Origin: Promethearchaeota archaeon | GTDB lineage: Archaea; Asgardarchaeota; Hermodarchaeia; Hermodarchaeales; Hermodarchaeaceae | Direction: 5' to 3' | Assembly (NCBI GenBank): GCA_048939245.1 | Contig: JBHLPR010000023.1 | Location: 1-35,266 of the forward strand | DNA length: 35,266 bases | In this document: positions 6,035 through 27,901 of the stretch, piece after piece | Numbering within the stretch: position 1 is the stretch's first letter | How the letters are laid out: each line of letters opens with the position of its first letter | The notes under the pieces: generated by a model | Seen by the model: only the letters and a program-made list of their open reading frames with translations | Told to the model about the DNA's origin: nothing | Database searches by the model: none | Translations under genes and position numbers: made by a program

Positions 6035-6069
6035 TTCTGTATTGTAACTCTTGTAGGGTAGATGAATAA

Positions 6070-6625: not shown

Positions 6626-6758
6626 GTATTTCGACCTTATTGGAGGGAAATAGAGGATGTCTGGGCGTCTACAAGAATATTAAGTAGAGGTGATATAACA
6701 TTTTCTTGTTCAAACAAGAGTTATCTGTGATTTTTAAGTGAAAATTAGATAGATAAAT

Positions 6759-7862: not shown

Positions 7863-7942
7863 AGGTGGAACACCGCTGTATCATCCTATGAAGTGAGATT
7901 ATATCTCTATCCCTTGCCCCCTATTTTCTTTCAGAATATTCG

Positions 7943-7958
7943 GAAGCTTCTTTATATA
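7943..7958 (+). promoter_or_regulatory. BRE/TATA of tRNA-Arg(CCG)
   Basis: GAAGCTTC-TTTATATA about 34-49 nt upstream of the tRNA. Confidence 0.55.
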
Positions 7959-7991
7959 CTGAAACTGATTCTTGTGGAAGGATAAGCTCGT

Positions 7992-8069
7992 GGGCCCTTG
8001 GCCTAGTATGGATAGGGCGACAGGTTCCGGACCTGTAGATCCCGCGTTCAAATCGCGGAGGGCCCGCCA
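7992..8069 (+). tRNA. tRNA-Arg(CCG), intronless, CCA encoded
   Basis: GGGCCCT..AGGGCCC acceptor stem plus GCCA; anticodon arm ACAGG-TTCCGGA-CCTGT; T-arm CCGCG-TTCAAAT-CGCGG. Confidence 0.97.
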
Positions 8070-8165
8070 CTTCTATACCTATTTAGTATGTGGCTCCTGG
8101 CATATCTATAATCCTTAAAGGTCACTCCAGCAACACCTACGCACTGCCTTTGGAGGTATACACTG

Positions 8166-9089
8166 GTGCAAATGGCTTCACAATGCATTAGCTGCCTAAT
8201 TTCACGAGCATTTCAAGAAGTCCAATTAGCAACCACTGACCTCGATATTCAATTAGAAGCAATGAACGAGGTTGTGAATATTCTGCACCTCTCCCTTAAT
8301 CAGGGAGGGCGTCTGGAAAAAATCCCAGCATATGTTGGTACTCGTCGTGATCAGGCAATCCACCGTATCACAGGTTGTGCAGATCCATATGCGCAATTGA
8401 AACAGAAATCCAATGAATCGGCATTGAAGCTAATCCATCCTTTGGAAGATTTTGTTTGGAAAGCTAAAGATTCGCAACAATGTTTCCGGCGAGCCTGTAT
8501 TGCCGCCTCCCTTGGCAATGTCATCGAATACGGGGTCGCGGGACATGAAATTCCATGGGAAAATATGGCGTCACTAATCACGCAGGCTGAAACTGAGTTG
8601 GCTATCGATCAAATACCACAACTTTACAAGTTAGCTCAAAAAGCGAAGCGGACTCTTTATCTGACAGATAACGCAGGAGAGGTCGTGTTTGATAAACTAC
8701 TAATATCAGCACTTGCGAAACTGGGTTCTCGGGTCACTGTGGCGGTGAAAGGAGCCCCTGTGTTAAATGACGCGATGCTTGAAGATGCAAAAGTAGCGGG
8801 CTTAACAGAAATTGCAGAAATAATTACAACTGGTGGTGGTGCGGTCGGGGTCTTACCACAATGGTGTTCAGATGCATTTCTTGATACTTTTAAGGAGGTT
8901 GATTTGGTGATTGCTAAGGGGATGGGACACCATGAAAGTTTACCCGAATTTAATTTGCCTAAACCCACTGCACACCTACTCCGTACAAAATGTCAACCAA
9001 TAGCCCGGTCCCTAAATGTTCCGAAGGATCGAAATATTGTGAAGCTGCTAATTGATCACAAAGGACCACTAGGTCCGCTCCAAAAGTAG
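8166..9089 (+). CDS. DUF89/ARMT1-like damage-control phosphatase
   Basis: N-terminal CISC, DPYAQLK, GNVIE, DNAGEVVFD, LNDA, IAKGMG, TKC; GGAGGT SD before GTG. Confidence 0.9.
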   Translation: MQMASQCISCLISRAFQEVQLATTDLDIQLEAMNEVVNILHLSLNQGGRLEKIPAYVGTRRDQAIHRITGCADPYAQLKQKSNESALKLIHPLEDFVWKAKDSQQCFRRACIAASLGNVIEYGVAGHEIPWENMASLITQAETELAIDQIPQLYKLAQKAKRTLYLTDNAGEVVFDKLLISALAKLGSRVTVAVKGAPVLNDAMLEDAKVAGLTEIAEIITTGGGAVGVLPQWCSDAFLDTFKEVDLVIAKGMGHHESLPEFNLPKPTAHLLRTKCQPIARSLNVPKDRNIVKLLIDHKGPLGPLQK

Positions 9090-9099
9090 AGAATATCTG

Positions 9100-10899
9100 T
9101 TATACTTCATCAGTACTAATGTAGTAATATTCACCACGTTGTTTCTGTTCCCGATCTAATCGACTGTCTTCTTTATTGACCCGAGGTCGGCCTGTAGCAT
9201 GATCCCGCCGGAAGGTTACACCCATCTCTTTGAGAAAAATATTCATCCCTGTTCGGAGGTCAACAGGTGCGTGGCATAGCCCAGTAGTCCCTGGTTCTCC
9301 TGAAAAAACTGATATCGTATCAGCGAAGGCAGAAATCGTTACCATATCATGTTCGACTACAAAGGCAGCTTTCCCCTTATCATGGACAATAGAGCGAATG
9401 ACTTTGGCAGCAGCTAACCGTTGTTCAATATCTAAAAATGCAGAAGGTTCGTCGAAAAGGTAGAGATCAGCGCTTCGGGCTAGACACGCCGCAATAGCTA
9501 TACGTTGAAGTTCACCTCCACTCAGTTCGGTAATCAAGCGATCTTCTATTTTATCGAGTGATAATGGGCGAATAACTTCTGATCTGAATATACTGGTTAA
9601 AACCGAAGCACCACCGACCTCGTGCAGTGCCTCGATGACAGTCTTCTCACTTTCTGCACGGAGATACTGAGGTTTGTAGCTAACTTTGATATCAGTTTCT
9701 GGAATGGAGCCCTCATCAGGTTCCAAGTCCTGAGCAAGGAGGCGAACGAATGTCGTCTTCCCAATACCATTCGGACCGAGGACACCGATTACCTCACCCT
9801 GATGGACCTTACCAGGCATTACTTGAAGATTGAAATCCTCAAACCGTTTTACCATTGCATTATATTCGAAAAGGAGCTCAACAGTGGCCCAGAATTCTTC
9901 GGTAGGAGGTCGAGTTTCAAATCGAATTTCTTCGTTCCGAAAGCGCACATTACTATCAGGCAGAAACCCATTAAGGTAGATATTAATTCCCTCCCGAACC
10001 CCATGGGGATTCGAAACAATTCCATAGACCCCCGGTTCTCCATAAAAAATACAGACATAATCTGAAATGTAATCTGCAACGGCTAAGTCATGAACAACGC
10101 AAACGACCGTTTTGCCTTCCAAAGCCAGGGAACGTATAGCACGAGCTGTGCGAACCCGTTGATACACATCAAGATAAGAGGTGGGTTCGTCAATAAGGTA
10201 GACATCCACATCGCGAGCCATGACAGCACCAATTGCGACGCGTTGCAATTCGCCTCCACTCAGGACGGACACATCGCGATGAAGTATATTTTCGAGTTCA
10301 AGCTGTTTAGTTAGAGTAGATAGTGTTCCTCGCTCATCGGTTGACTCGAGGAGAGATTGAACCGATCCTTTGTACGCTTCGGGAATTGCGGTGACTATTT
10401 GGGGTTTATACGCAACGGTGAGTTCATTTTTAGCAGCTTTTTCAAAATAGGGTTGGAGACCAGACCCACGATAGTGGCGAATGATTTCCGACCAGTCAGG
10501 TGGTTCTTCAAAGTTTCCTAGGTTTGGCTGTAATTGGAGCGCTAGAATTTGTAACGCAGTTGATTTTCCAGTCCCATTAGCTCCAACGAGTCCAGTTACT
10601 GAGCCGGGGGCAGGAACAGGTAAGCGGAATAATTTGAAGCTATTGGGTCCGTATCGATGAGACGTATCAGTTTCCAGTTCATCGGCCAGATTAATGATGC
10701 TTAAGGCCCTAAAAGGACATTTTCGCGTACAAATTCCACAACCGGTACACAGGATTTCAACTATCCGAGGTTGGGCATCCTTTTTTTGTTCAAAGACGAT
10801 GACTTCATCACCCATTCGTTGAGGAGGACAGAATCGCTGACATTCTTTTGTGCACTTGGAAGGATTACAGGCACGGGGATCTAAGACAGCGATTCGCAT
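9100..10899 (-). CDS. abcE1: Ribosome recycling ATPase ABCE1/RLI1
   Basis: Two 4Fe-4S motifs (CNPSKCTKECQRFCP, CTGCGICTRKCP), HRYGPNSFKL, two ABC domains (GANGTGKS, GPNGIGKT, LSGGELQR twice), TFRRD..GRPRVNK. Confidence 0.97.
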   Translation of the reverse strand: MRIAVLDPRACNPSKCTKECQRFCPPQRMGDEVIVFEQKKDAQPRIVEILCTGCGICTRKCPFRALSIINLADELETDTSHRYGPNSFKLFRLPVPAPGSVTGLVGANGTGKSTALQILALQLQPNLGNFEEPPDWSEIIRHYRGSGLQPYFEKAAKNELTVAYKPQIVTAIPEAYKGSVQSLLESTDERGTLSTLTKQLELENILHRDVSVLSGGELQRVAIGAVMARDVDVYLIDEPTSYLDVYQRVRTARAIRSLALEGKTVVCVVHDLAVADYISDYVCIFYGEPGVYGIVSNPHGVREGINIYLNGFLPDSNVRFRNEEIRFETRPPTEEFWATVELLFEYNAMVKRFEDFNLQVMPGKVHQGEVIGVLGPNGIGKTTFVRLLAQDLEPDEGSIPETDIKVSYKPQYLRAESEKTVIEALHEVGGASVLTSIFRSEVIRPLSLDKIEDRLITELSGGELQRIAIAACLARSADLYLFDEPSAFLDIEQRLAAAKVIRSIVHDKGKAAFVVEHDMVTISAFADTISVFSGEPGTTGLCHAPVDLRTGMNIFLKEMGVTFRRDHATGRPRVNKEDSRLDREQKQRGEYYYISTDEV

Positions 10900-10975: not shown

Positions 10976-12355
10976 TTATTGTGAATCAAGCCATATTGCG
11001 CGGTGCCTGAGAAACTTCAGAGCATTTGCAGCTCGCTGTGGAGTGGCAAAATTTGGGATTCCAGCTGCGTTGAGAATTGGAATACCTGATTTCACAATAT
11101 CCTCTGCTAGCCAACAGGTAACAAGAGGCTTCTGTGGATTGGTTTTCTGAGCCCTGACAATGCCCTTTGATATTGCTTCAATATCGGAGAACGCTGTGGG
11201 AACACACAAAAGAAGAACCATATCGACAATCGGATCCTGAAGAAGGAGTTCTGTGGTTCGCTGATAGGTTGATGGTGACCCTTCTGGTCCCAGGTCAACG
11301 GGATTATTCATCGGAGAAACGGGTGGTAGGAAGGACTCAAATTCCTGGATTAATCGTGTCGGAAAAGGTATGACGTCGAGATTTGACCTTACACAGGCAT
11401 CAACAGCAAGAACCCCAGGACCACCACTATTCGTAATGATACCAACGCGCTTTCCATGAGCAAGTTTTGAAGTTGACAAAATGGAACAAGCATCAATGAA
11501 CTCGTCAAGTGAAGACACTTGGAGAATCCCTGCTTGGCGAAAAGCCCCTGCATATAAAGCTTGCACGCCTGCCATTGCACCTGTATGAGACTCAATTGCC
11601 TGAGTAGCTTCTTGCGTTTCTCCGGGCTTTAAAATTATAATGGGTTTTTTTGGTGTTACCGTTTGTGCTACTGAAAGAAAGTCCCGGGCATTTTTGATGC
11701 CTTCAAGATAGCAACCAATTAATTTGGTGGGGACGTGACCACTGAGATAACGAAGGATCTCTTCGGGCCCGATATCGGTAGCATTCCCATAACTTACAAA
11801 CATACTAAAGCCAAGACCGACAGCGCGAGCCATGGCAAGGATAACAGCACACATAGCGCCGCTCTGGGAGATGAATGCCAAAGGACCGGATTGTAGCCGA
11901 TTTTCAAAACTCGCATAGATCCGTTCCTTGGTGGCTGCAAATCCAGCACAATTGGGTCCCAGCATTCTCATACCATATTTTGTTACACGTTTCTCGAGCT
12001 CTTTCTCTGTAGTCACATCACCTAGTTCACTAAATCCAGAGCTCATTACAATGATATTTTTGACATCTTTACGTCCACATTCATCAACTGCATCAAGCAC
12101 ACGGTCTTTACGTAAGACGATGATTGCTAGATCAATCTCGGTTGGAACAGCTGATATTGAAGGATATACGGAGAGTTCTAAGAGAGTCTTGAATCGGGGG
12201 TTAATGGGATAAATTAAACCTTTGAATTTCCCCAAAAGCAAGCTTCTTACAACTTGGTAGCCAATCCGGCTAGGTTTATCAGTTGCACCTATCACAGCGA
12301 TGGACTTAGGTTGAAATAACGAACTTAGAGCTCTTTGTGACACAGAAGACACCAC
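10976..12355 (-). CDS. acdA: ADP-forming acyl/acetate--CoA ligase alpha subunit
   Basis: FQPKSIAVIGA, LGPNCAG, FISQSGA, SYGN, phospho-His SHTGAM, ITNSGGPGVLAVD, NPVDL; lacks the ATP-grasp (beta) part. Confidence 0.88.
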   Translation of the reverse strand: MVSSVSQRALSSLFQPKSIAVIGATDKPSRIGYQVVRSLLLGKFKGLIYPINPRFKTLLELSVYPSISAVPTEIDLAIIVLRKDRVLDAVDECGRKDVKNIIVMSSGFSELGDVTTEKELEKRVTKYGMRMLGPNCAGFAATKERIYASFENRLQSGPLAFISQSGAMCAVILAMARAVGLGFSMFVSYGNATDIGPEEILRYLSGHVPTKLIGCYLEGIKNARDFLSVAQTVTPKKPIIILKPGETQEATQAIESHTGAMAGVQALYAGAFRQAGILQVSSLDEFIDACSILSTSKLAHGKRVGIITNSGGPGVLAVDACVRSNLDVIPFPTRLIQEFESFLPPVSPMNNPVDLGPEGSPSTYQRTTELLLQDPIVDMVLLLCVPTAFSDIEAISKGIVRAQKTNPQKPLVTCWLAEDIVKSGIPILNAAGIPNFATPQRAANALKFLRHRAIWLDSQ

Positions 12356-12472
12356 AGTTTCAGGGTGTAATCAATATTCAGCTCGTGGACAGTTATGGAC
12401 AGGAATAGTCCTGAGTGTTAAAAGATTTGTTGGAAGCCAGCTAATTGATTGGATTGAACCTTTGAAGCCTTG

Positions 12473-13423
12473 CTAAACGAACTGAATAACCTTAGCAATC
12501 TCCCGTTGTCGAGAACGTAGGGTAACTTCGGTAATGCCTAAGGTTGTGGCAACCACTTGTTGTGAACGGGTTTCACCCAATTGCTTGGCAGCTAAGTAAA
12601 TGGCTGCAGCAACATAGCCCTTTGGATCTTTTCCAGAAAGTCGTAGCTTCTGTGATGTGATTCCTAGAATTTCAATTGCTCTCTGTTCAACAGAAGCTGA
12701 TAAGCCCAAAGCGTTGGCAAACCGGGGAACAATTGTAGCTAGATTTTGCTGTTTCGGTTTCAAAGCCAGCGTTTTGACTAATAGCACATAACACCGTTTA
12801 ATGACCCGGTCTTCTTCACCTGAAGTTTTCAAAACACTATCTAACGTTAGCGGAAAACCGCATGTCTTTGCGGCAGCAAACACACACGCGGCAACCATTG
12901 CTTTGATGCTATGCCCTCGCAGAAGATCATGTTTGTAGGCCTTTCGATAATAAATCGCAGCAGTTTCACGGATATGTCCAGGAACACTGAGTTTTTCTGC
13001 TATTCGACGAATTTCAGTAAAAGCAATAGTAAAGTTTCGTCGACGCCAAGTCGAACGAGAGTTCCATCGCATAATCCGTTCAAGTCGACTAGCACGAGCA
13101 GCGGAAATCCCATTTCCGTTTAACCGAGTCGAAACCTTCGTTGATAGACCAAAATCCGGAAGCATCTGAGAAAGAGGTAACCCATTAGTGCTCCGTTGAG
13201 CCTTCTCTTCCGGTGTGAACGCACGGACGCCAGCACGATGATCAATCAACGCCTCTGAGAGGACCATTCCGCATCCAGTGCAAATGAGTTCACCCCGTTG
13301 GGGGTCGTGTACAATATCCTGTGACCCACATTCTTGACAGCGGGTTACATCAGAATGCTTTGTAGTGACTGCTGCATTTTTTGAATACTCTACAGTCAAG
13401 AAGCCTTTAACCTCAAAATCCAA
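12473..13423 (-). CDS. tfb: Transcription initiation factor IIB (TFB), divergent paralogue
   Basis: Zn ribbon CQECGS..GELICTGCG, two cyclin repeats (AAIYYRKA..MVAACVF; GKDPKGYVAAAIYLA), HTH GITEVTLRSR. Confidence 0.93.
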   Translation of the reverse strand: MDFEVKGFLTVEYSKNAAVTTKHSDVTRCQECGSQDIVHDPQRGELICTGCGMVLSEALIDHRAGVRAFTPEEKAQRSTNGLPLSQMLPDFGLSTKVSTRLNGNGISAARASRLERIMRWNSRSTWRRRNFTIAFTEIRRIAEKLSVPGHIRETAAIYYRKAYKHDLLRGHSIKAMVAACVFAAAKTCGFPLTLDSVLKTSGEEDRVIKRCYVLLVKTLALKPKQQNLATIVPRFANALGLSASVEQRAIEILGITSQKLRLSGKDPKGYVAAAIYLAAKQLGETRSQQVVATTLGITEVTLRSRQREIAKVIQFV

Positions 13424-13572
13424 AAGGCGTAAGCGTCTTTTTATAACTCCGCAATAATAGCACCAAAAACATCAACTAACGCTTATAAATGTAGGACTTT
13501 TTGATGATTTTGAGATACCGATGAACTGCTTTTCAAGGAGAAAAATAACTCGTCGCTAATTCTTCTTTTTAA

Positions 13573-14472
13573 TTAGGTGCTTTCGAGTAGCTGTGATAGT
13601 AGCCCTTCTCTGATGCCAGGGAAATAGCTGTGATGTTTTGCTATCTGAACAGTGACGGTCGGAATATGTTCGTGTCGACGAGTGGTTCGAGAAATAGTAT
13701 CCACTTCTGTGAGAGTCTCTGCTGTAAGAAGGCTGACGATAATAGGCGCTTCCACCGAAATATAGGTCTCCCATAAAGAAAGGGAGAAGGTCTCTTGAAG
13801 CCACGAGATAATAGATGTATGATCGGTTGCTCGCTCATCCCATGTTAACCGCATTAAGAAAGGAATACTTCCTGCTGCTCCGAGTTCAATGAGTGCACTG
13901 AACTTAATTGCTTTCCCTTCCAGGATTTCATCGATTAGCTTCCGGACCCGACGAGCAGTTAATCCGGATTGATCGGCAATATCAACAATGGACATTCGGG
14001 GGTCATCTTTTAGTGTCTTCAATACGCGAAGATGGAGTTTCGAGAAGTCCATACTGTAGCCTGGTTGGCTTAACAGTTGGTGGGTCTCGATGGTATGAAC
14101 GCAGTCGAAGCTTCGAAGAAAAGCCCCAACTTCCCAGAGGTCTTGCGAATTGCGGAATTCAGCGATTAGGGCATAGTTTCCTCCGGTATAAGATGCGGCG
14201 GCGATGATTTTGTTGTTCCCGCCAAGTGTGTTAACGAACTCAGCTTCATCTTGTGAACCATCGGTTGTCAGCATGCCATACAAGAGGTTCACGCCGACCA
14301 TTCCAGATGAGACTTGGAGTCTATAACCTGTAATGATTCCCGTTTCCTCGAGTTTTTTTACTCGTTTTTTGATGGCACTAGAAGAGATGGTATATTTGGT
14401 AGCAAGTTCTCGATAGGTGATCCGACAATTTTCAACAAGATCATTAAGAATGCCTTTATCAATTGCATCCAA
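13573..14472 (-). CDS. Tandem Lrp/AsnC-family transcriptional regulator (two wHTH+RAM units)
   Basis: MDAIDKGILNDLVENCRITYRELA..IKKRVKKLEETGII and a second HTH LHLRVLKTLKDDPRMSIVDIADQSGLTARRVRKLI. Confidence 0.85.
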   Translation of the reverse strand: MDAIDKGILNDLVENCRITYRELATKYTISSSAIKKRVKKLEETGIITGYRLQVSSGMVGVNLLYGMLTTDGSQDEAEFVNTLGGNNKIIAAASYTGGNYALIAEFRNSQDLWEVGAFLRSFDCVHTIETHQLLSQPGYSMDFSKLHLRVLKTLKDDPRMSIVDIADQSGLTARRVRKLIDEILEGKAIKFSALIELGAAGSIPFLMRLTWDERATDHTSIISWLQETFSLSLWETYISVEAPIIVSLLTAETLTEVDTISRTTRRHEHIPTVTVQIAKHHSYFPGIREGLLSQLLEST

Positions 14473-14489
14473 CGTTTATCATCTCGGCT

Positions 14490-15839
14490 TCATGAGTCTT
14501 GATGAGAAATATGACCAATTTTCCATTTTGCCTGAGATAGCATATTGGTGGTATCAATCAACCGGTCTTCAATGATAAGAAGCTGAGATTTAGCTTTTTC
14601 ATAGGCTGAATGTTGGGCAATAAGTACAACACAATCAGCGTCCAACGCTTCATCAAAGGACACGGGTGTGAATCCTAACGTGGTAATTTCATTAGTAGTG
14701 AAATGGGGGTCGTGGGCTAAAACTGCTTTAGGGCTGAGTTCCTGGAGTAATTTGAGTATCCGGAGACTGGGAGCAAAACGAGTTTCCTTAACATCAGCTC
14801 TGAAGGAGATACCCAACAGGCTTATCTTTGATCCCTTAACTGATTTTTTGTGGGCGTTTAGACAGCGAATTATTAGGTCAACGGTGTGATAAGGCATACT
14901 ATCGTTGATATAGCGGGCTTGTCGGAGCAGGGCTGGGTTAACACCGGTCTCTTTAGCTTTGTTAATGAGGAACCAGGGATAGACAGGGATGCAATGGCCT
15001 CCGACACCAGCACTAGGACGATGGATCATACAATGTTCACGAGTCCCCTCATTAGCTGCAGCGATAACTTCCCAGACATCAACTCCTATGGATTCACAGA
15101 GCATGGCTAGAAAGTTTGCATACCCGATATTGAGATCCCGAAACGTGCCTTCTGCAACTTTTACCAGTTCAGCGGCAAGGAGTGAGGAGGTTTGAACTAC
15201 CTCACCAAAGACCGCATACACCCCAGCAGCTGCTTTGGTGCTTGCTGCATCAATGCCGCCGACGACTTTGGGGAATTTGTAAAGATTGCGAACGACACGA
15301 CCAACCATAAGTCGTTCCGGGCTATGAGCGAGGCCAAAATCCTTACCAGCAACTAAGCCACTGGTGACTTCCAGAATCGGTTTGATTACCTGTTCTGTAG
15401 CGCCTGGTGGCATTGTAGTGGAAGTTATCACCAGATCGCCTTTTTGTAAGCCTTTTCCTGCCACCTCTGTTGCCCTACGAATAATTGAATAATCTTCCTG
15501 GCCTGTTGAGTTGACCAAAAGGGGCACGAGAAGGATGATGACGTCCGATTCCTCAGCTGCAGCGGTGCCATCAGTGGTTGCACGGAATTTACCGGTTTTC
15601 ACCATTTTCTCAAGGAGTTCGGGAATCTTGGGTTCGCCAATAAGTGGGGATTTTCCTTGATTTATCTGTTCAACAAGTGTCTGATTCGTGCGCACGCCTA
15701 CAACGTTAGCCCCTTCATTTGCGAATGCAATAGCCACTGGGAGTCCCATATTCCCGATACCGACTAAATCTACGGTAACCTCACCTTTGCGGATTGCTCG
15801 TGTAACCGCCGCTGCTGATTTCCCATATACTTTAACCAT
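14490..15839 (-). CDS. Nucleotide-sugar 6-dehydrogenase (UDP-GlcNAc/ManNAc dehydrogenase, WbpA/WecC family)
   Basis: GIGNMGLP Rossmann motif, TTMPPG, HSPER, AELVKVAE, catalytic GVGGHCIP, GISFR..ETR; ATG 15839 preferred (ORF track 15869). Confidence 0.92.
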   Translation of the reverse strand: MVKVYGKSAAAVTRAIRKGEVTVDLVGIGNMGLPVAIAFANEGANVVGVRTNQTLVEQINQGKSPLIGEPKIPELLEKMVKTGKFRATTDGTAAAEESDVIILLVPLLVNSTGQEDYSIIRRATEVAGKGLQKGDLVITSTTMPPGATEQVIKPILEVTSGLVAGKDFGLAHSPERLMVGRVVRNLYKFPKVVGGIDAASTKAAAGVYAVFGEVVQTSSLLAAELVKVAEGTFRDLNIGYANFLAMLCESIGVDVWEVIAAANEGTREHCMIHRPSAGVGGHCIPVYPWFLINKAKETGVNPALLRQARYINDSMPYHTVDLIIRCLNAHKKSVKGSKISLLGISFRADVKETRFAPSLRILKLLQELSPKAVLAHDPHFTTNEITTLGFTPVSFDEALDADCVVLIAQHSAYEKAKSQLLIIEDRLIDTTNMLSQAKWKIGHISHQDS

Positions 15840-17715: not shown

Positions 17716-18186
17716 CTATTCATCATGTTCCTTTTCTGGGTGCTTTTCTTTTGGCTGTTGGCGTTTCAAGGGCTTCTTAGTATCGATGCTGTAGATTGCT
17801 TTTATGTAAAGAAGTCCATCACATCGTGGACAAGGACCGATTTCTCGGAAGATATGGTCACCTGATTCTAATGGTCCTTCAGTTTCAACGCCGCATTTAT
17901 CGCAGGCAACTAGGCGTCGAACTTCTGGGAATTCGAGTTTTGCTGGTGCCCGAGTTCGACGATAGATGAGAACTAGAAAAAGGGCAAGAAGAGCAATGCC
18001 TACCCCCCAAAGAATTAGATTGAACGGCGGACCGTATAGAAAACCCCAAACCAAAAAGACGAATATTAGTGTAATAAGGCAGGCCCACCAAAAGCGTTGG
18101 CCTGGACTTCCTACAGTTAATTCAGGGCCAGGTTCACCAGTATCCTGATTTTGTTTCATTTTGAGAGCACCCAAGGAGTATATCAT
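17716..18186 (-). CDS. Two-TM membrane protein with C-terminal Zn ribbon
   Basis: Hydrophobic FWWACLITLIFVFLVWGFLY and LILWGVGIALLALFLVLIY, then CDKC..GDHIF..CPRC..IKAIY. Start may be ATG 18159. Confidence 0.8.
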   Translation of the reverse strand: MIYSLGALKMKQNQDTGEPGPELTVGSPGQRFWWACLITLIFVFLVWGFLYGPPFNLILWGVGIALLALFLVLIYRRTRAPAKLEFPEVRRLVACDKCGVETEGPLESGDHIFREIGPCPRCDGLLYIKAIYSIDTKKPLKRQQPKEKHPEKEHDE

Positions 18187-18243: not shown

Positions 18244-19593
18244 TTATTTTTTAGGTTTGCGCATGCGTTGTATGAAGGAGAGGGTCTCTTCGATTTCCCG
18301 TTCCCGCGCTTCGATAAGGGGCCACATGCTCAAACCGATGCTTTCGCCAGAAATTTCTGCGAATAAATCAATGAAAAGTCCCACCTGATATGCGTACATA
18401 TTTGAAACCGTTTGCGAGGGGCGTCCATGCTTGATGTGGAATTCGACTAATGCATAATCACTCCACCGACGGTAGACTTCGTTCTTCCATAGTGTCGCAG
18501 CATCAAGTGGAAAGTGCATTAAGGCATTCTTCTTGCCAACATTGGGGAAAAGAAATGGGGCTTGAAATGGATGTAAAACATTCCATTCAATATGCAGTAA
18601 ATCCTGGGTTTTGAGCGGATGTAACTTACATGGTAGCATCCAGTTATCTCGGCGAACTTCAGCTGTGGTAAGATCGTAGGAATGCCATTTTTTAGGCACG
18701 TGCAACGCGATTGGAGAATCAGCGCTTCGCAGATTATCTACATGACTAATCCGACGGTCGCTAGGAACTTCTTGATAATGATAGCTGCCTCCGAACGCCT
18801 TTGTCATATAATCTGCCATGGGGTTGAAGTCAGCAGGGGTGATCTGCAAACCTGAGCTATCCCAATTAATGAAAGAGCGGATGATGTGACCGGGGCGTTT
18901 ACCTTTGAGAATTGGTCGAGCCCCATAATCAGCATTGAATGTGATGAGGAGGGGCTCATAGTTTTTACCGTCCTTTCGGACAATAACATAGACCGGCTCG
19001 TAATCATACAGGTGGCGTGGAAGCAATTGAATCGGCCAATAAGCAAAATATTGGATGCAATGCACGTTCTTATCTGCCGGGTCCCGACTAACCCGATATT
19101 TAATTACACAAGTGGGTGTATCTTCGGTCGGAAAGATCGTCGCGAATAGGGATTGGAGATACTCTTTAAATTGCGTCGAATAATCGCTTCGAAGACGTTG
19201 ACGAATCTTGGCCAATACCCCGTACATTTCCCTATCCCATGGAACATCACTTTCGGGGAGTTCGACTCCTAAAATTGCGAGCTTTGCCCCATTTAGATTA
19301 TTTGGGAATTCACCGAGACAAAAAAGGAAAAGTGTATCTGCGATTCCTGCAAAGTCATCCCCTTGAACACGCCTCCTAAATGCCGCCAATCTTCCTCCAG
19401 GTGGCTTCAAACCGAGATTCTTTGCAATATCATTTTTTTCTTCTTCGATAATTCGTTTATCGGTAAATAGTTTAGGACAAAATTGTTGAGCGAGGCGGTG
19501 TTCTTCCGCGGTTGGCGTATTTAGAGCGGGTTTAAAACCAGCCAAGGGAAATGCCTTTTTCCAGCGGTTAAGTATTTCTTCGGATAATTTCAT
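18244..19593 (-). CDS. Hypothetical protein with Vps62/NPP1-like motif set
   Basis: LAQQFCPKLF, CIQYFAYWP..RHLYDYEPVYVIV, LHVPKKWHSY; ATG 19593 with GGAGA SD preferred (ORF track 19638). The CDS is confident; the family call is tentative. Confidence 0.7.
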   Translation of the reverse strand: MKLSEEILNRWKKAFPLAGFKPALNTPTAEEHRLAQQFCPKLFTDKRIIEEEKNDIAKNLGLKPPGGRLAAFRRRVQGDDFAGIADTLFLFCLGEFPNNLNGAKLAILGVELPESDVPWDREMYGVLAKIRQRLRSDYSTQFKEYLQSLFATIFPTEDTPTCVIKYRVSRDPADKNVHCIQYFAYWPIQLLPRHLYDYEPVYVIVRKDGKNYEPLLITFNADYGARPILKGKRPGHIIRSFINWDSSGLQITPADFNPMADYMTKAFGGSYHYQEVPSDRRISHVDNLRSADSPIALHVPKKWHSYDLTTAEVRRDNWMLPCKLHPLKTQDLLHIEWNVLHPFQAPFLFPNVGKKNALMHFPLDAATLWKNEVYRRWSDYALVEFHIKHGRPSQTVSNMYAYQVGLFIDLFAEISGESIGLSMWPLIEAREREIEETLSFIQRMRKPKK

Positions 19594-19725
19594 GATTGGA
19601 ATCTCCGAGATCTCCAGCCGTGAATAGCATGGAAACAAGTTATTATCTACTTTTGGGTCACCTTTAACCGATTCTTGACTGATATAGAGAAGATTTTATT
19701 TTAACTTATATCGATAACAGAATCT

Positions 19726-20664: not shown

Positions 20665-23031
20665 CTATTCAGAGTGAATGATACGCCCATTTGCCATGCG
20701 ATATTGATGTTCAGAAGCGGACAGTACAGCATTCTGATGGCTAACAACGATTATTTGTTGGAACGTTCGTGATAATTCGTCTTGTAGCAACCGAATAATG
20801 TTATCACGCCGTTGAATATCTGACCCTCCAAACGGTTCATCCAGCAAAAGAAACTGAGGCGCAGTACCTCGACCTTGGGGGAGGAGTGCAATCGCAAAGC
20901 CGAGACGTAACGCAAGGAGAAACTGATCTTCGGTTCCACCACTATACAAGTCTGCTTGGACATATTCGCCAGCCTCCGAAGAATATACTTTCAGGCTATA
21001 GTCTTCACTCAGCTTCGGAAACCGGTACTTACCATCCGTAATTGTGGCCAAAAGGCGCTCCATAACATTTACAACACGAGGGCGGACCTGTTCACGTCCC
21101 CGCTCTGCGACTTCACGAAGAAGGTCGATGATTAACTGACCGGTTTTGATATTCTCATTCAATGTGGCGATTTCACGTTCTTTTGCTGAATATTCTTCAA
21201 CCACACTTTCATTTTCTTTCAAAAGGGAAGCTAATTCCTCTAATCGCTCAGTTGTCGTTGTTCGATTTGCTTGTAAGCGAACCTTCTTTTCGCGCTTTTC
21301 CCTCACTTGTTGCTCAAGTTCCTCATATAACTCAGCTGAATATTTTCCCAGCGCCTCTGAAAGAGTAGGAAAGGTTAAGGTTGATAGTTTTTCGTTCAAT
21401 TCTGTAATTTCAGATTCAGTTTGTGCTAAATCCTCTTCTGATTCTGCCATTTCAGCTAGCTGTTCTTCTATCGACTCTAATTGCTCTATTAGTGAATTTG
21501 CGCCAGCCTTGAGCTCCATTAATTTCCGATCCACTTCCCTCACAGCGACTTGCAAAGCTTCGCTATCAGATGCACCCGGCATTTCAATGCCTTCGAGCAT
21601 AGAGGAAGAAACTTGATTTAACTGCGAATGGAGTTGTTGAGAAACACCGTCTATCTCTTCAGATAGGATAGATTTTCGTTGTATTTGATCTTGTAGTTGG
21701 CTTTGTTGTTCTTCTCTAACCCGATATTGGGCAACTTGTTCACCTAGCGATTCTTCACGTGTCATAAGTTGATCTAGTTCAGGAAGTGCTTTACTGTAAA
21801 TGAAATAGATCCTGGCCAGATAGAGTAAGAAGGGAATCGCGGCCACAACGAGAATTATCCCGAAAAGAGGATTAAAGAAAAGGATACTTAGTCCTGCGGC
21901 TAATAATCCAATGGAGGGAATGTAAAGCATCGGAGAGAAAATCTGTTTCTGACTAGCTTCGACCTTTTGGCGTTGAGCCTTAACATATTCAAATTCAGCA
22001 AGAATATCCTCCATTGGTTCTAATTCGTCCAGTTGCGCTTCCAGTCTGGTGATGTGTTCATCCACCATCTGTTGTTCATCAATTTTGGTTCGTAGTTGAT
22101 CTGAAGTGGTTCGTAAATTTTGGACCTTTTCAATCTCAATTGGTAAATATTCAAGTTGTTTTTGTTGCTTTTTAAGCCGTTTTTGTTGGGATTGGAGTTT
22201 GGAAGTACTTGCCAATTGTTTGGTTAGTCGATCCTTTGTTTCGATTTGGTGCTGTATTTCTCGTTGGAGTTCTTCTTGTCTATCTTGGATTTCCTTATAG
22301 GCCTTGACGGCCGTATAGTTTTTCTCAGTTTGAGCAAGAGATTGACTCACTTGTTTAAGTTGCTCTTCAAGCTGAGTAAGCACTTGTTGCTTGGCTTTGT
22401 GCTCCTCCGCATGTTTCAGAAAGTCTTCTTTACGATGTTTGAGCTGTTCTAGCGTTTTTTGTTCGGGTTCTATGGTCTTCTTTAATGGGCGGAGGTCTGA
22501 AAGAAGTTTATCATCAGCCCGTGTAAAGCACTCGCGTCCCATCATGGCATTGATAACATGCCGTCGTTCCATCTTTGGCATCTGGGCTAATCGATCTAGA
22601 TCTTTCTGAAGGACAATATTGCTTGCGAGCAGGTCGCTGAGTGCAATTCCATTCAGTAGACTACTGATTTCTTTGTCGACGTTTGTGACACCGGTAGCAA
22701 TTCGGGTGGATTGCCCCGATGCTCCAAGTTTATGTAATGACGCTTGGGTGGGGCGTTTCCGATTTATTCGTCGAGTGATTCGATAGTTGGTTCCATCAAT
22801 TTCAAAGTGGAGCTGTACTAGTGATTCATTGGCGTCATAATTGATGAGTCGGTCTTTTTGTCCCAGTGGAGCCTTGTGTGTACGCCCAAAGAACGCAAAG
22901 AGAATTGCTTCAAATATGCTGGATTTCCCGGATTCGTTGGGTCCACTGACTGCGAGAATGCCTTGGGGAAAGGTGATGTCCACATCAAGATGTTTGAAAT
23001 CCCGAGTCATTATTTGGCGAAGAACCACCAT
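20665..23031 (-). CDS. rad50: Rad50/SbcC-type SMC-like ATPase, hook-less, with predicted transmembrane hairpin at the coiled-coil apex
   Basis: Walker A GPNESGKS, Q-loop IVLQ, long heptad coiled coils, signature YSGG, Walker B LLLDEP, H-switch VVSH; directly downstream of mre11. ATG 23031 with GGAGG SD (ORF track TTG 23040). Confidence 0.9.
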   Translation of the reverse strand: MVVLRQIMTRDFKHLDVDITFPQGILAVSGPNESGKSSIFEAILFAFFGRTHKAPLGQKDRLINYDANESLVQLHFEIDGTNYRITRRINRKRPTQASLHKLGASGQSTRIATGVTNVDKEISSLLNGIALSDLLASNIVLQKDLDRLAQMPKMERRHVINAMMGRECFTRADDKLLSDLRPLKKTIEPEQKTLEQLKHRKEDFLKHAEEHKAKQQVLTQLEEQLKQVSQSLAQTEKNYTAVKAYKEIQDRQEELQREIQHQIETKDRLTKQLASTSKLQSQQKRLKKQQKQLEYLPIEIEKVQNLRTTSDQLRTKIDEQQMVDEHITRLEAQLDELEPMEDILAEFEYVKAQRQKVEASQKQIFSPMLYIPSIGLLAAGLSILFFNPLFGIILVVAAIPFLLYLARIYFIYSKALPELDQLMTREESLGEQVAQYRVREEQQSQLQDQIQRKSILSEEIDGVSQQLHSQLNQVSSSMLEGIEMPGASDSEALQVAVREVDRKLMELKAGANSLIEQLESIEEQLAEMAESEEDLAQTESEITELNEKLSTLTFPTLSEALGKYSAELYEELEQQVREKREKKVRLQANRTTTTERLEELASLLKENESVVEEYSAKEREIATLNENIKTGQLIIDLLREVAERGREQVRPRVVNVMERLLATITDGKYRFPKLSEDYSLKVYSSEAGEYVQADLYSGGTEDQFLLALRLGFAIALLPQGRGTAPQFLLLDEPFGGSDIQRRDNIIRLLQDELSRTFQQIIVVSHQNAVLSASEHQYRMANGRIIHSE

Positions 23032-23033
23032 CC

Positions 23034-24197
23034 TTACCAACCTCCGGATTCTTCAAGGAGTGCAAGTCCTTGCTCTAAGGCATTTTGAAGAAGTTTCTTC
23101 ATTTCAGGGTCTTTTTCCCGTTTAATCCGTTCCAGCACGTATTCGCGGTATTCGGTCGTCGGTGATTTCAAATCAGTATCAGTAGCGAGAAATTCAGGAT
23201 CTGGACTGATATATTCGAGCTCATCAATGATTTCTGTCGAAAAACATTTCGCGAATCCGTGACGCACGACTTCAGCCCGTCGATATTGTTCTGCGGATTT
23301 TATGGTCATAACGCCCTTCAATCGGAACCGCAGGATGAGTTGGGGGTTACGAAGACGGGTGATTTCCTTGATGAGCAGCTGATTGATGTTTGCATCCTTA
23401 GGTATTGTAACAGCAATAGTTTTCATAGCCCGGGTCTCTATGGGAATATGTTTGAGGATTTGAACGCCATCCGTGTCAACCTCTAACCAGACAAACCCTT
23501 TCTTTTGCCCCTCTTCAGTGAAGGTAACATGTTCAGTACTTCCTGGGGTACAGATGGTAGTGTTACCTGCCCTTTGTTTTTGGAATTCATGGTTATGACC
23601 TGCTGCAAGATAGGTAAGATTTTTCGGAACGGATTTGAGCAAAATATCCGGCTCATGGGGAAAGGTTCCCCGTAGCCCTTCCACATTATAGTGGGCGAGA
23701 AGTAGATTCACATCACCTTTCCCGGGGATTGATAATTGGTGAAGAGGATCTTCGGAGGGGAGAAGTGTGGGATTGAATGAAATTCCAGAGATTTCGATTT
23801 CCATGTTTTTAATAGCAAGAGATTGAGTTTGGATGCGTTCCCAATCCTGGAAGAAATTGACGAATCCGGCTCGTGCATATTCAAGTAAGGGAGCCACTCC
23901 GTGTCGACGTGCCCGAGGAACATCATGATTACCGCTTATGATATAGATTGGGATCTGTTTTTCATAGAGTTTGCGAAAAGCGTCCATCACATGTGCTCGG
24001 ACGGGGTTGCGGGGATTGAGTCCATCAAATAAATCGCCTGAATGGAGGAAAAGATCAGGTTTCTTTTCGAGGGCGTATTCAATCACTGTGTCAAAGGATT
24101 TGAGAAAATCTTTCTTGCGTTCATAGCGTCGTGCCTGGAATTTCACAGCGGGAATATCTAGGTGGGTGTCTGATGTGTGCAGAATCGTGATTGGCAC
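23034..24197 (-). CDS. mre11: Mre11/SbcD DNA repair nuclease
   Basis: Phosphoesterase motifs SDTHL, SGDLFD, SGNHD, LLAH, AGHNH, then PGSTE..EEGQKKGF and a capping domain. Confidence 0.94.
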   Translation of the reverse strand: MPITILHTSDTHLDIPAVKFQARRYERKKDFLKSFDTVIEYALEKKPDLFLHSGDLFDGLNPRNPVRAHVMDAFRKLYEKQIPIYIISGNHDVPRARRHGVAPLLEYARAGFVNFFQDWERIQTQSLAIKNMEIEISGISFNPTLLPSEDPLHQLSIPGKGDVNLLLAHYNVEGLRGTFPHEPDILLKSVPKNLTYLAAGHNHEFQKQRAGNTTICTPGSTEHVTFTEEGQKKGFVWLEVDTDGVQILKHIPIETRAMKTIAVTIPKDANINQLLIKEITRLRNPQLILRFRLKGVMTIKSAEQYRRAEVVRHGFAKCFSTEIIDELEYISPDPEFLATDTDLKSPTTEYREYVLERIKREKDPEMKKLLQNALEQGLALLEESGGW

Positions 24198-24203
24198 CGG
24201 TAA

Positions 24204-25835
24204 TCAAACCTCGGAGAAGGATCCTTTGAGTTTTGTTTCTTCTTTGCGGTCTTTCTTAAGCTTTTGATCTATTCCAACTGCTTTTCGTGCTTGTTTGAGT
24301 TTTGCCACCACGTCAATGTCAGCTCCGCCTTCTTTTGTGAGGCGTGAACGGACTTTGATCATCACAGGTGTTCGTGTGATATCGCCTACTACAACAGCTT
24401 CTCCAACGTTGAGACCAGGAAGGTCATTTATGAGGTCTTCACTTAGTCGTTCTGAGGATTGGGCAATGGCGTTCTGATCTCGGGGATTTGTAATTTTGAG
24501 GACAATTTGACTGTTGCACTGGCTAAGGCTATCAGGATGGATGCGCCCAGGTCGTTGGCTGATGAGGAGTAAGAAGACACCAAATTTTCGTCCTTCTTGG
24601 GCGATTCTTCGGATTATAGAGGCGGAATAGGTGAAGACTTCGGGTGGGACAAAATTATGGGCTTCTTCTACTACAACGAATACTGGATAGGCAAATTCAT
24701 CGGTTACGACCGCTTCGAAAACATCTCGAAGCAGCCGGCTGACGATATAGTCGGTGCTTCGGTTGCCGAGTCCTGAGAGGTCCATTACTGCAGCATGGTA
24801 GGGCCTTATGATTTTTGTCACAGGTACCCCACTTCTCGAGAACACGCGAAGGCGCCTTAGGCGATTGACATATTTGACTGCGTTTCGTGCACCAGCACGA
24901 GTATCTTTGCTTATCTGTTCATCTTCGGCAACTGTATTCAATTCCTTAACGATATCTTCCATGAGATAAACGATGTTCCGTTCTTTCAAACGATTCAATG
25001 CCGCTTCTAGTCCGGCCCGAATGATTGTAAAACTCTCCCCGATTCCACAAATGCCACAAAGTTCATCAAAATCTAAATCAGCTAATCGAACTGTATATTC
25101 TTCAACTTGGCCAATATCCTTTTTACTATAACGACCGGTGCTTTCAGGATTTTGAAAGACAGTAACATGTTCTGAGAAAGTATGGCTAGTCCCTTTTTCG
25201 GTTTGACTCAGAAATACATAGTCAGCGTGAGGGTCGATGACAATGACTGTGGCACCCCGTTTCATTAACTCTTCGATGAGCACTCCTGTAAGATAGCTTT
25301 TACCTGCCCCTGTTTGAGCTAGAATCGCTACATGCCGTCGGAATCCATTGATTCGGATGTTGACCGGGATTTGTGGTCGAGAGATAAGATTACCGATGTA
25401 AAGACTTGCATCATTGGGGTAGGCGTAAAATTGTGCGAGTAGATGATTTGGTGCGATGTATATGGGGTTTCCAGGCGTCACTGCGCGGCGGGGAAGTAGT
25501 ATACGTGGAGGATGCCCTTTCTTCGTTGGAGTAAGGTATCCTAGAACTCGTGCAACACCCCAAGTTTTTACATCATCGATGTGGGCTTCTTTGATTCGCG
25601 TGATTGCATCATAATCGAGATCGCGACGCAAAGCGAGGCTTTGAGAGGTGATGCGTTCAACCTGTGCAAGGACTTTAACGGGTTTGAGAACGCCATCGAC
25701 GAGTTCTTCGGATTGAACGGTAAGATATTCAAATTTGGGGGGATAGCGTTTCCGTTCACTCGCAAAGTAAAATTCGGTGGCTTTGGCTTCTTCGACGATG
25801 AAGCCTACGGGTTGATCTTCTTGGGTATTAGGCAC
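24204..25835 (-). CDS. herA: HerA DNA helicase/translocase
   Basis: N-terminal HAS barrel, RHVAILAQTGAGKS, IDPHADY, VVVEEAHNF, EGRKFG, SQRP, LPGLNVGEA; GTG 25835 with GGAGG SD overlaps the nurA stop (ORF track 25853). Confidence 0.94.
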   Translation of the reverse strand: MPNTQEDQPVGFIVEEAKATEFYFASERKRYPPKFEYLTVQSEELVDGVLKPVKVLAQVERITSQSLALRRDLDYDAITRIKEAHIDDVKTWGVARVLGYLTPTKKGHPPRILLPRRAVTPGNPIYIAPNHLLAQFYAYPNDASLYIGNLISRPQIPVNIRINGFRRHVAILAQTGAGKSYLTGVLIEELMKRGATVIVIDPHADYVFLSQTEKGTSHTFSEHVTVFQNPESTGRYSKKDIGQVEEYTVRLADLDFDELCGICGIGESFTIIRAGLEAALNRLKERNIVYLMEDIVKELNTVAEDEQISKDTRAGARNAVKYVNRLRRLRVFSRSGVPVTKIIRPYHAAVMDLSGLGNRSTDYIVSRLLRDVFEAVVTDEFAYPVFVVVEEAHNFVPPEVFTYSASIIRRIAQEGRKFGVFLLLISQRPGRIHPDSLSQCNSQIVLKITNPRDQNAIAQSSERLSEDLINDLPGLNVGEAVVVGDITRTPVMIKVRSRLTKEGGADIDVVAKLKQARKAVGIDQKLKKDRKEETKLKGSFSEV

Positions 25836-27165
25836 GACGGACCCTCCTTTCACGGCGTTTGGGTATTAATGGGATTTTCAATTCTTTTTCGATTAATGGT
25901 TCATATAATGTTCTCACATCCCTCGTGGGCAATCGGGCTTCTTGGTCAGCGTTCACCAGATAAGCATTATACAATTCTAATCCACCATATTCACCACGTA
26001 ATATCCTCAAAATCTCGATTACTCGAGCCGGGGGAGGGTCAAGCAAGCGCGAGGAAGATATTTGAGATATTCGTGTTGGGAGCCCCGCATTAAATGCAGG
26101 TAAATCGATACGCAGAGGGGTGTCATTGTAAGCGAATTTCGTACAGAATGTCACGAACGTGGGAATTTGGAAGACATTTTGCATAACCGGAACGGCCCAT
26201 TTTTCAAATTCGTCTTCATGATCATAGTCATTATACGCGTTCACAAAGCGTCGTCTTACGTATGCCGCGGGGTCTTTGGATTCGTATTTGAAGAGCGGAA
26301 CATCGGGGTACGGCTCAATTGGTGTAGTATATCCCGCAGTTTCTGTCCAGGCTTGAATAAGGGAAAAATCAGGGCGAGGTCGGCGAAGCTCATAAAGGAG
26401 GTCCCAGATTAACTCAGATTGCTTATTGCTGAGGGGGAGTGCTTTAAGGATGGATCTTGTAGAAATGGACTGCTTCTTCTCAATATTAAATAATTGAGCG
26501 AGTTGGTCTAACTCGTCTGGCTTGAGAGCGGGAGTAAGTTCCTGTAATATTTTATTCTTTACCGATTCCAATAAAATGCGGGTGAGATGCCGAGCAACAG
26601 AATCCTTGCTGATTCCAAGAATCAAAATTTTACGTTTCCGACATTCCTCGAGGAGCCGCATGAAGGTTTGCATATAGCGTAGATAGAGGTCTCTTTCCCC
26701 GGGGTAATTGAATGCGATTGGTACATGGGTTATACGACCATACAAGGAACCGTCCAATAGAATCAAATCTACATCCGAAGCTTCTTGTACTGCTTCCAGC
26801 GCTACTTGGTGTTCTATATGTTCGGATCGGATGCTCGCGAGGTCGATGAGTTGTTCTCGCGGAGAAGCAATCATGTGAGCATTTGAGGAGACTTTACGGT
26901 ATGTTGATCCCCACGAAGTGATGGCACTTGCTCGGCAAATATACATAAAGGAACCTGAGGCATACTCCCGAGTTGAACGACCACTGTCTACCGCAATCAC
27001 TTGTAGTTCGGGTTTTTTCTCAGAAGGAAGCTCGCGCCATTCTCTTTGAAAAGCCGTTTTTAAGAACCCATCGAGATCTGTAGATTCTTCACCGGTGAGT
27101 CGACGACGAAACGCGTCGCGTTTTTCTTGTAACTCGGAGAGGAATAGATCGAGAAAATGTGGCAT
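25828..27165 (-). CDS. nurA: NurA DNA double-strand-break repair nuclease
   Basis: IAVDSG, EHIEH, LILLDGSL, GISKDS, PLRID, C-terminal YNAYLVNADQEAR; adjacent to herA. Confidence 0.9.
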   Translation of the reverse strand: MPHFLDLFLSELQEKRDAFRRRLTGEESTDLDGFLKTAFQREWRELPSEKKPELQVIAVDSGRSTREYASGSFMYICRASAITSWGSTYRKVSSNAHMIASPREQLIDLASIRSEHIEHQVALEAVQEASDVDLILLDGSLYGRITHVPIAFNYPGERDLYLRYMQTFMRLLEECRKRKILILGISKDSVARHLTRILLESVKNKILQELTPALKPDELDQLAQLFNIEKKQSISTRSILKALPLSNKQSELIWDLLYELRRPRPDFSLIQAWTETAGYTTPIEPYPDVPLFKYESKDPAAYVRRRFVNAYNDYDHEDEFEKWAVPVMQNVFQIPTFVTFCTKFAYNDTPLRIDLPAFNAGLPTRISQISSSRLLDPPPARVIEILRILRGEYGGLELYNAYLVNADQEARLPTRDVRTLYEPLIEKELKIPLIPKRRERRVRRA

Positions 27166-27481: not shown

Positions 27482-27901
27482 ATGCAGTTAGTAGAATTAA
27501 TTTTCTCCGCTATCGTCTTCATCATCGTTTGGCTATTTGGATCACTGATTCTCTGGTTAGCAGGAAAACTCGTTTCAGGTTATAACGCAAAATTCACTGA
27601 TGCTCTAGCGATTTCTCTACTCGGCGCAATCATTAACTGGGTAGTATCATGGGTTATGGATAACTTCGTGGCCTCACTCCTTGCTCCCTTAGGGTTGGTT
27701 GGCATGATTATCGGTTTAGTAGTTCCATTGCTTACCGTCTTGATAGTGTATATACTACTTATCATGCACTTCTTCGATACTGGGTTTCTTGGAGCCTTGG
27801 CTGTAGGAATACTCTACTTGATTTTCATGATCATCATTTTGATCGTTCTTGGTATTTTTGCAGTCATCATAATAGGCCTGCTATTATTGATATTTCCGTA
27901 A
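27482..27901 (+). CDS. Small four-TM membrane protein of unknown function
   Basis: 139 aa, almost entirely hydrophobic helices; GGTGAT SD; TATAAAG upstream at about 27425. Confidence 0.82.
   Translation: MQLVELIFSAIVFIIVWLFGSLILWLAGKLVSGYNAKFTDALAISLLGAIINWVVSWVMDNFVASLLAPLGLVGMIIGLVVPLLTVLIVYILLIMHFFDTGFLGALAVGILYLIFMIIILIVLGIFAVIIIGLLLLIFP

Follow-up and report, generated by a model that had tools for sequence, protein, structure and literature searches.

A NurA-HerA-Mre11-Rad50 operon in an Asgard archaeon whose Rad50 carries a hydrophobic, probably membrane-anchored hairpin in place of the zinc hook

The window analyzed here is a stretch of 35,266 nucleotides (nt) from a Promethearchaeota archaeon of the family Hermodarchaeaceae (GenBank assembly GCA_048939245.1, contig JBHLPR010000023.1, positions 1 to 35,266). 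Region 20665-27165 contained four consecutive minus-strand open reading frames (ORFs), identified from the ORF list and by direct reading, in the order nurA, herA, mre11, and rad50. The first, nurA (27165..25828; 445 amino acids [aa]), was predicted to encode a 5'-3' nuclease that is the partner of HerA, and herA (25835..24204; 543 aa from GTG 25835, with a longer start possible at GTG 25853) a hexameric DNA translocase. These were followed by mre11 (24197..23034; 387 aa), predicted to encode a Mn-dependent nuclease, and rad50 (23031..20665; 788 aa), predicted to encode an ABC-type ATPase with a coiled coil that lacks the zinc hook and has a hydrophobic helical hairpin at its apex instead.

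The four genes were translationally coupled. At the nurA/herA junction (GTGCCTAA), the GTG start of herA (25835-25833) preceded the TAA stop of nurA (25830-25828), giving an 8-nt overlap, and a GGAGG ribosome-binding motif for herA was read inside the 3' end of nurA (25847-25843, minus strand), 7 nt upstream of GTG 25835. The TGA stop of herA (24206-24204) was separated by a 6-nt gap from the GTG start of mre11 at 24197, with the corresponding GAGGT motif inside the 3' end of herA (24212-24208, minus strand). The TAA stop of mre11 (23036-23034) was separated by 2 nt from the ATG start of rad50 at 23031, with a GGAGG motif inside the 3' end of mre11 (23045-23041, minus strand), 9 nt upstream of that ATG. 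The longest rad50 ORF (791 aa) began at TTG 23040; ATG 23031 was preferred as the start because orthologs are 788 aa in length. A TTTAAA sequence was found approximately 45 to 50 nt upstream of the nurA ATG, and the operon ended with the rad50 stop, which abutted a convergent GNAT gene.

Genes were assigned with Pfam and NCBIfam profiles. NurA matched Pfam NurA (PF09376; E=2.8e-16) and, below cut-off, NCBIfam NurA_Pyro and NurA_Sulf, and its residues Asp60, Glu118, and Asp138 (gene numbering) were at least 95% conserved in an alignment of 19 NurA sequences. HerA matched the Pfam DUF87/HerA central domain (E=1.1e-37) and NCBIfam helicase_HerA (228 bits); its Walker A GxGKS, Walker B EE, and Arg finger were retained and at least 95% conserved in the family alignment. 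Mre11 matched Pfam Metallophos (E=2.2e-17) and NCBIfam Mre11_Sulfo (101 bits) and retained phosphoesterase motifs I to V, with residues at least 95% conserved in the family alignment; its nearest solved structures were the Mre11 proteins of Methanocaldococcus jannaschii, Thermotoga maritima, and Pyrococcus furiosus. All NCBIfam equivalog scores for Rad50, Mre11, HerA, and NurA were far below their cut-offs, and the operon proteins are therefore diverged members of these families. The locus contains all four genes of the archaeal NurA-HerA-Mre11-Rad50 set in one cluster, with the predicted active residues intact. An earlier note on this DNA had described the gene overlap, the 6-nt and 2-nt gaps, and the Shine-Dalgarno motifs within upstream genes, all of which were reproduced to the base, and had considered the catalytic motifs essentially intact, in agreement with their conservation in the family alignments of all four proteins.

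The Rad50 split head was complete, with Walker A, Q-loop, SGG signature, Walker B/D-loop, and His switch. The protein matched Pfam AAA_23, SMC_N, and SbcC_Walker_B and, below cut-off, the NCBIfam Rad50 profile PRK03918 (144 bits), and the motifs GPNESGKS, Q142, S697-G698-G699, D731-E732, D738, and H765 were invariant or nearly so in alignments of 50 and 72 sequences. The nearest solved chains were archaeal Rad50 heads, from M. jannaschii and P. furiosus (E=5e-23). In an AlphaFold2 (AF2) model with a mean predicted local distance difference test (pLDDT) score of 83.7, residues 167 to 364 and 388 to 664 formed helices with short breaks, consistent with a long antiparallel coiled coil. Pairing of rad50 with a neighboring mre11 gene was maintained in all loci examined.

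No CxxC motif was present anywhere in Rad50, whose single Cys was at position 171 of the 791-aa ORF. The zinc-hook position was occupied by an apical hydrophobic helical hairpin (residues 366 to 406; 21936..21814, minus strand; SPMLYIPSIGLLAAGLSILFFNPLFGIILVVAAIPFLLYLA), and hydropathy exceeded 2 across approximately 45 residues at the apex. The hairpin comprised two apolar helices, each of approximately 19 residues, that met at a tight Asn-Pro turn (Asn387-Pro388), with Lys and Arg on its flanks. Across 72 aligned sequences with 23 to 100% identity, columns 373 to 406 contained no Lys, Arg, Asp, or Glu (34 consecutive columns), Lys or Arg accounted for 50 to 68% of residues at flanking positions 362-363, 407, and 414, and a polar Asn (54%) occurred at the hairpin midpoint. 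The AF2 model, based on the same alignment, placed a helix at residues 367 to 383, a turn at 384 to 387, and a second helix at 388 to 472 that ran into the C-terminal arm, with pLDDT scores of approximately 80 to 86 in this part. Mean pairwise identity among close orthologs was 0.61 in the hairpin, compared to 0.41 to 0.43 in the coiled coil; among distant members, hairpin identity was 0.18 and only the hydrophobic character was kept. Such a composition is the expected pattern for a membrane helical hairpin with both ends in the cytoplasm. The absence of CxxC, together with the apical hydrophobic hairpin, supported the earlier description of this protein as a "membrane-type" Rad50 without a zinc hook.

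Profile matches of its relatives suggested an indirect link between this Rad50 and a bacterial protein of similar design. Pfam AAA_27 (PF13514), which we take to be the YhaN-type N-terminal domain, scored 20.6 bits against the window Rad50 (cut-off, 22 bits) and 21.5 to 63.6 bits against its relatives. The hairpin types tested matched this profile and none of five hook types did (0/5), whereas Rad50_zn_hook matched hook types only. Bacillus subtilis SbcE (YhaN) has no CxxC and has a conserved hydrophobic central domain between long heptad-repeat arms, and this domain is insoluble when expressed alone (PMC2811018). The sbcE gene adjoins that of SbcF (YhaO), a nuclease of the Mre11/SbcD type; SbcE binds SbcF and has a role in double-strand break (DSB) repair (PMC2811018). 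The hydrophobic central domain was noted in 2009 and was not called transmembrane (PMC2811018).

Judged from its composition, and given that the equivalent domain of SbcE is insoluble (PMC2811018), the archaeal hairpin would insert into a membrane. It could also be a soluble, metal-free dimerization module, two hairpins forming a four-helix bundle that leaves the location of the complex unchanged. The conserved small residues of the hairpin (G375, A378/A379, G380, G391, and A397/A398) suit tight helix packing, the hairpin is better conserved within a lineage than the arms are, and the hook has been presented as a swappable dimerization module (PMC6969161). A soluble module is nevertheless rather improbable, given that 34 charge-free columns across 72 diverged sequences, helices of approximately 19 residues, and Lys/Arg collars constitute the signature of a lipid-embedded segment. 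Further, hydrophobicity and not sequence is what distant members preserve, and the SbcE central domain is insoluble (PMC2811018).

The same architecture was found in all close relatives. All 48 close orthologs in the protein collection (48 to 100% identity; 638 to 791 aa), labeled at NCBI as Promethearchaeota, Thorarchaeota, and Hodarchaeota metagenome-assembled genomes (MAGs), had the hairpin, and none had CxxC (0/48). In a sample of 201 Asgard genomes, the 18 other genomes of the window's family all encoded the same Rad50 with herA-mre11-rad50 synteny (19/19 in total). The case that the earlier note had named against its own proposal, in which close relatives carry ordinary hook Rad50s and this copy is a one-off, was thereby excluded.

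The earlier note had also proposed looking for a second, hook-bearing rad50, and none was found in the window's own genome or in its 18 relatives. The own assembly (88% complete) encoded three SMC-type ATPases, namely, the hairpin Rad50, SMC, and a 979-aa SMC-like protein, and contained no match to the Rad50_zn_hook profile above the cut-off. When the 19 family genomes were queried with a hook-type Asgard Rad50, only the hairpin-type gene and one weak, unclassified 942-aa match were obtained; a hook-partner Mre11 query matched only the mre11 of this operon. By the logic of the earlier note, the lack of a second hook-bearing Rad50 would place core repair at the membrane, as opposed to an accessory system. 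RadA was also encoded in the genome. The 979-aa SMC-like ATPase (G000:C96, approximately 12250-15190, plus strand; AAA_23, 66.6 bits) lacked CxxC and was globular and hinge-like in its middle part; it was distinct from the canonical SMC on contig C26 and may be Smc5/6-like or an archaea-specific SMC-related protein.

More distant hairpin-type operons (26 to 31% Rad50 identity) occurred in Asgard families f14, f12, f6, f17, and f4, and the four-gene order was identical in f14 and f6. Other Asgard families had ordinary CxxC Rad50s of approximately 700, 790, 864, and 906 to 965 aa beside mre11. Two further arrangements were observed among the Asgard loci. Four f6 genomes (L047 to L050; G145, G139, G130, and G181) encoded "mini" Rad50-like ATPases of 433 to 444 aa directly after an mre11-like gene, with both head halves, a very short coiled coil, and neither CxxC nor a hydrophobic hairpin. 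One locus (L065; G026:C1:395000-412000) contained two mre11-rad50 pairs of the hook type (Rad50s of 719 and 720 aa) on the same strand, approximately 5 kb apart; the Rad50 heads were identical in the columns kept for the tree, and the whole pair is a recent tandem duplication.

Searches beyond the Asgard archaea recovered a large and little-described clade. An exhaustive phmmer search with the window Rad50 against 1.84 billion representatives yielded 225 clusters at E<=1e-30 and 2252 at E<=1e-10. Among the best 150 clusters, 140 had a central hydrophobic hairpin and 0 had a central CxxC, the remainder being mostly fragments, and these 140 hairpin types ranked before any hook type. Named members included Thermobaculum terrenum, a Blastocatellia bacterium, and a second, 1075-aa type in Promethearchaeota. 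Longer hairpin-type relatives were found in Asgard MAGs (1075 to 1092 aa; P0113 and P0227), in Blastocatellia (P0148; 1345 aa), and as P0218 (1695 aa); arm length in the hairpin clade varied approximately threefold with the central hairpin retained. A scan of species-representative genomes (at least 18 loci) revealed a Thermofilaceae MAG with a full nurA-herA-mre11-rad50 operon of the hairpin type, a Bathyarchaeia member, and bacterial pairs of an mre11-like and a hairpin-type gene (Sumerlaeota and Actinomycetota) with no herA or nurA beside them.

At least 23 of 301 Thermoproteota genomes had a hairpin type adjoining mre11 and herA. Exact look-ups identified such proteins in Thermofilum pendens Hrk5 (ABL78969.1), Thermofilum adornatum (AGT36251.1), Infirmifilum lucidum (QOJ78662.1), Infirmifilum uzonense (AKG38236.1), Infirmifilum sp. 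NZ, and "Candidatus Caldarchaeum subterraneum" (BAJ50840.1), where database labels were only "SMC family ATPase," "AAA family ATPase," or "exonuclease SbcCD, C subunit." With larger flanks, the four-gene order was identical in 16 of 20 loci; the other 4 were cut by contig ends or contained only mre11-rad50. The impression left by the earlier note that the design was special to this operon or to the Asgard archaea did not hold, as the operon also occurs in T. pendens, Infirmifilum, and Caldarchaeum and the clade is shared with bacteria.

Other Rad50-like genes were observed in these lineages. "Candidatus Caldarchaeum subterraneum" (G228) encoded, alongside its hairpin-type operon, a second Rad50-like gene (L145; C1:911556-915254) with a 760-aa frame and a Rad50_Sulf match of 218 bits, and neither CxxC nor a hydrophobic segment was present in the 738 residues seen. 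A CxxC-bearing second SMC-like protein of Thermofilaceae was considered as a repair Rad50 and rejected, as it was arcadin-4-like. Three Thermoproteota loci (L138 to L140; G305, G217, and G401) and P0122 formed a separate, long-branched hairpin subclade (768 to 819 aa) with its own Mre11 clade, and herA and nurA were not detected beside it in the stretches read.

Phylogenies were inferred with IQ-TREE quick searches, for which only SH-aLRT support was calculated, and the Rad50 tree was built from the head halves alone, so that the apex contributed no columns. All 39 hairpin types fell on one side of a single branch (SH-aLRT, 91), and one change accounted for the distribution of the hairpin label. 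The 21 archaeal operon-linked hairpin Rad50s formed a starred clade (96) that was sister to a bacterial hairpin clade. Within the archaeal clade, Asgard and Thermoproteota sequences were intermixed, which implies either that genes moved between archaeal lineages or that the paralogs are old. The Mre11 proteins that accompany the archaeal hairpin types likewise formed one clade, of 22 sequences (support, 92). Hairpin Rad50 heads, with their coevolving Mre11, are one clade across Asgard archaea, Thermofilaceae, Caldarchaeum, and bacteria.

HerA of the hairpin-type operons also formed a starred clade, inside which the window HerA was placed; this clade included HerA from one hook-type operon (genome G194). 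That operon (L059; G194:C21:124000-136000, 3915-10660, minus strand) had the order nurA-herA-mre11-rad50 and a HerA 46% identical to that of the window, and its Mre11 and 906-aa Rad50 were ordinary hook types (CxxC at 459; Rad50_zn_hook match). The presence of a HerA from the hairpin clade beside a hook-type Mre11 and Rad50 suggests that the Mre11-Rad50 module was exchanged while the NurA-HerA module stayed constant.

Genes surrounding the operon in the window encoded TFIIB, ABCE1, an Lrp/AsnC-type regulator, sugar-nucleotide, coenzyme A (CoA), and thiamine pyrophosphate (TPP) enzymes, a radical-SAM protein, and a few unassigned proteins. No integrase, mobile-element, defense, secretion, pilus, channel, or import gene was found among the operon's neighbors in the window, and across 22 loci no fifth (membrane) partner gene was conserved beside the operon. 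Three flanking ORFs had no Pfam match at E<=0.001 (17716-18186, minus strand, 156 aa; 18244-19638, minus strand, 464 aa; 27482-27901, plus strand, 139 aa) and were not retained next to the operon elsewhere among the lineages.

This setting bears on whether the operon acts against plasmids or viruses by degrading injected linear DNA at the membrane, an option raised by the earlier note. SMC-like ATPases and HerA recur in defense systems, and in PADLOC Rad50 partially matched mad3 and LmuB, and HerA partially matched defense-type HerA models. These matches were to the generic head domain and to HerA in general, however, and HerA scored lower against the defense models (176 bits) than against the repair model (228 bits). 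Mre11 and NurA matched no PADLOC defense model, and neither PADLOC nor the gene neighborhood revealed the full system-specific protein set of Lamassu, Wadjet, MADS, or HerA-linked defense. The neighborhood was of the housekeeping kind, the synteny was conserved in 19/19 family genomes, unlike that of patchy defense islands, and the operon encodes the sole Mre11-Rad50 detected in the family genomes. A defense function is therefore highly improbable, and the earlier option of destroying injected DNA was set aside.

A function in DNA traffic was also considered. In competent cells of B. subtilis, SbcE gathers at the poles, and it influences transformation (PMC2811018); in Thermoproteales, rad50 and herA-like genes adjoin the Ted import genes, HerA-NurA having been proposed as the source of the transferred single-stranded DNA (PMC9905601). 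By analogy, these cases suggest a role in DNA crossing the membrane that would be compatible with a role in repair. A machine devoted to membrane-proximal DNA traffic, in transformation or cell-to-cell exchange, instead of or besides chromosomal repair, was weighed as a rival reading. The additional hook-type Rad50 kept by several Asgard genomes is as expected for such a division of labor, and HerA matched the model of the DNA-translocating ATPase CedD (102 bits, below cut-off). The Ted comparison, however, covers gene adjacency and not the apex type of the Pyrobaculum and Vulcanisaeta Rad50s. In the window's family, this Mre11-Rad50 was the only one found, so general repair must use it or proceed without Mre11-Rad50, and neither the neighbors in the window nor the 22 loci provided a pilus, channel, or import gene associated with the operon. 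A dedicated DNA-traffic machine is thus considered unlikely.

The reading that we favor, with a probability of roughly 0.65, is that of a housekeeping NurA-HerA-Mre11-Rad50 operon for DSB end processing in which the zinc-hook apex of Rad50 has been replaced by a hydrophobic two-helix hairpin anchored in the membrane. Attachment of the repair machine to the cell membrane is probable. In the proposed mechanism, the hairpin would insert in the cytoplasmic membrane, both coiled-coil arms would extend into the cytoplasm, and the Mre11(2)-Rad50(2) head would hang below the membrane on arms of approximately 200 residues (a few tens of nanometers). The head is predicted to bind DNA ends and cut them in an ATP-dependent reaction, after which the ends would be passed to HerA-NurA for 5'-3' resection, yielding 3' tails for RadA. 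The hairpin would take over the job of the hook, with the arm tips held together by packing or by co-confinement in the plane of the membrane, and would also fix repair at the cell periphery. The anatomy described in the earlier note, and its idea of a membrane-tethered resection machine, agreed with all tests made here; membrane insertion is a prediction from sequence.

Several points weigh against the favored reading. Hydropathy was calculated with a simple Kyte-Doolittle window rather than a dedicated topology predictor, and the membrane location of all archaeal members is deduced from their protein sequences. An apex fixed in the membrane is hard to reconcile with models that require free opening and closing of the Rad50 arms around DNA, or the bridging of two distant ends by them. 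The family genomes are MAGs of 72 to 91% completeness, which limits the sole-copy status of the hairpin type. Five Asgard genomes of other families had both the hairpin-type operon and a CxxC Rad50 of approximately 700 aa, and there the hairpin type need not be the housekeeping copy. A broader proposal is that in a sizeable part of the archaea, entire Asgard families and cultured Thermofilaceae among them, the sole Mre11-Rad50 is an integral membrane machine, that recognition and resection of ends take place at the envelope, and that a hairpin of single ancient origin, shared with SbcE, does more than anchor the complex and physically couples repair to DNA crossing the membrane by exchange or uptake; we regard this proposal as tentative and doubtful.

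No published description of a membrane-type archaeal Rad50 was found in a search that covered few subscription journals and is not proof of absence, the SbcE paper being the nearest. To our knowledge, all Rad50 proteins, from those of phages to that of humans, are regarded as having and needing the zinc hook. The operon is a familiar machine in which this supposedly universal module has an unexpected and conserved substitute. A large clade has an apparent membrane anchor in place of the zinc hook, and some of its lineages have no other Rad50. Should the hairpin prove to be membrane embedded, models of Mre11-Rad50 with free arms and bridging hooks cannot hold as stated for these organisms, DSB repair in the carriers would be tied to the cell periphery, and the poorly understood bacterial SbcE/SbcF pair would be placed in a wide evolutionary setting. 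Direct tests are feasible, as carriers are in culture (Thermofilum and Infirmifilum) and a bacterial relative, B. subtilis SbcE, is accessible to genetics.

Compared to the canonical archaeal cluster of Sulfolobus, P. furiosus, and M. jannaschii, the window operon has the same four gene families in one operon and the same intact motifs. It differs in that its Rad50 has a charge-free, two-helix apex instead of the CxxC zinc hook, and in that the Rad50 head and Mre11 belong to clades apart from the hook-type pairs of Asgard archaea and Thermoproteota. With SbcE it shares a hookless Rad50/SbcC-like ATPase with a hydrophobic center and an Mre11-type partner, a likeness drawn from the Pfam AAA_27 matches and the published description (PMC2811018) rather than from a direct sequence comparison. 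B. subtilis also has a hook-type SbcC, whereas in the window's family the hairpin type stands alone. The bacterial pairs of Sumerlaeota and Actinomycetota differ in having no herA or nurA beside them, both of which are present here. Close counterparts outside the Asgard archaea are the operons of Thermofilum, Infirmifilum, and Caldarchaeum, whose identities to the window proteins were 46 to 50% for HerA, 34 to 39% for Mre11, and 26 to 29% for full-length Rad50 (locally up to 37%). The Thermofilaceae Rad50s have longer arms (837 to 845 aa), and between lineages the character of the hairpin is conserved and its sequence is not. These operons match the window operon in gene order and apex design, and their Rad50 heads fall in the same starred clade.

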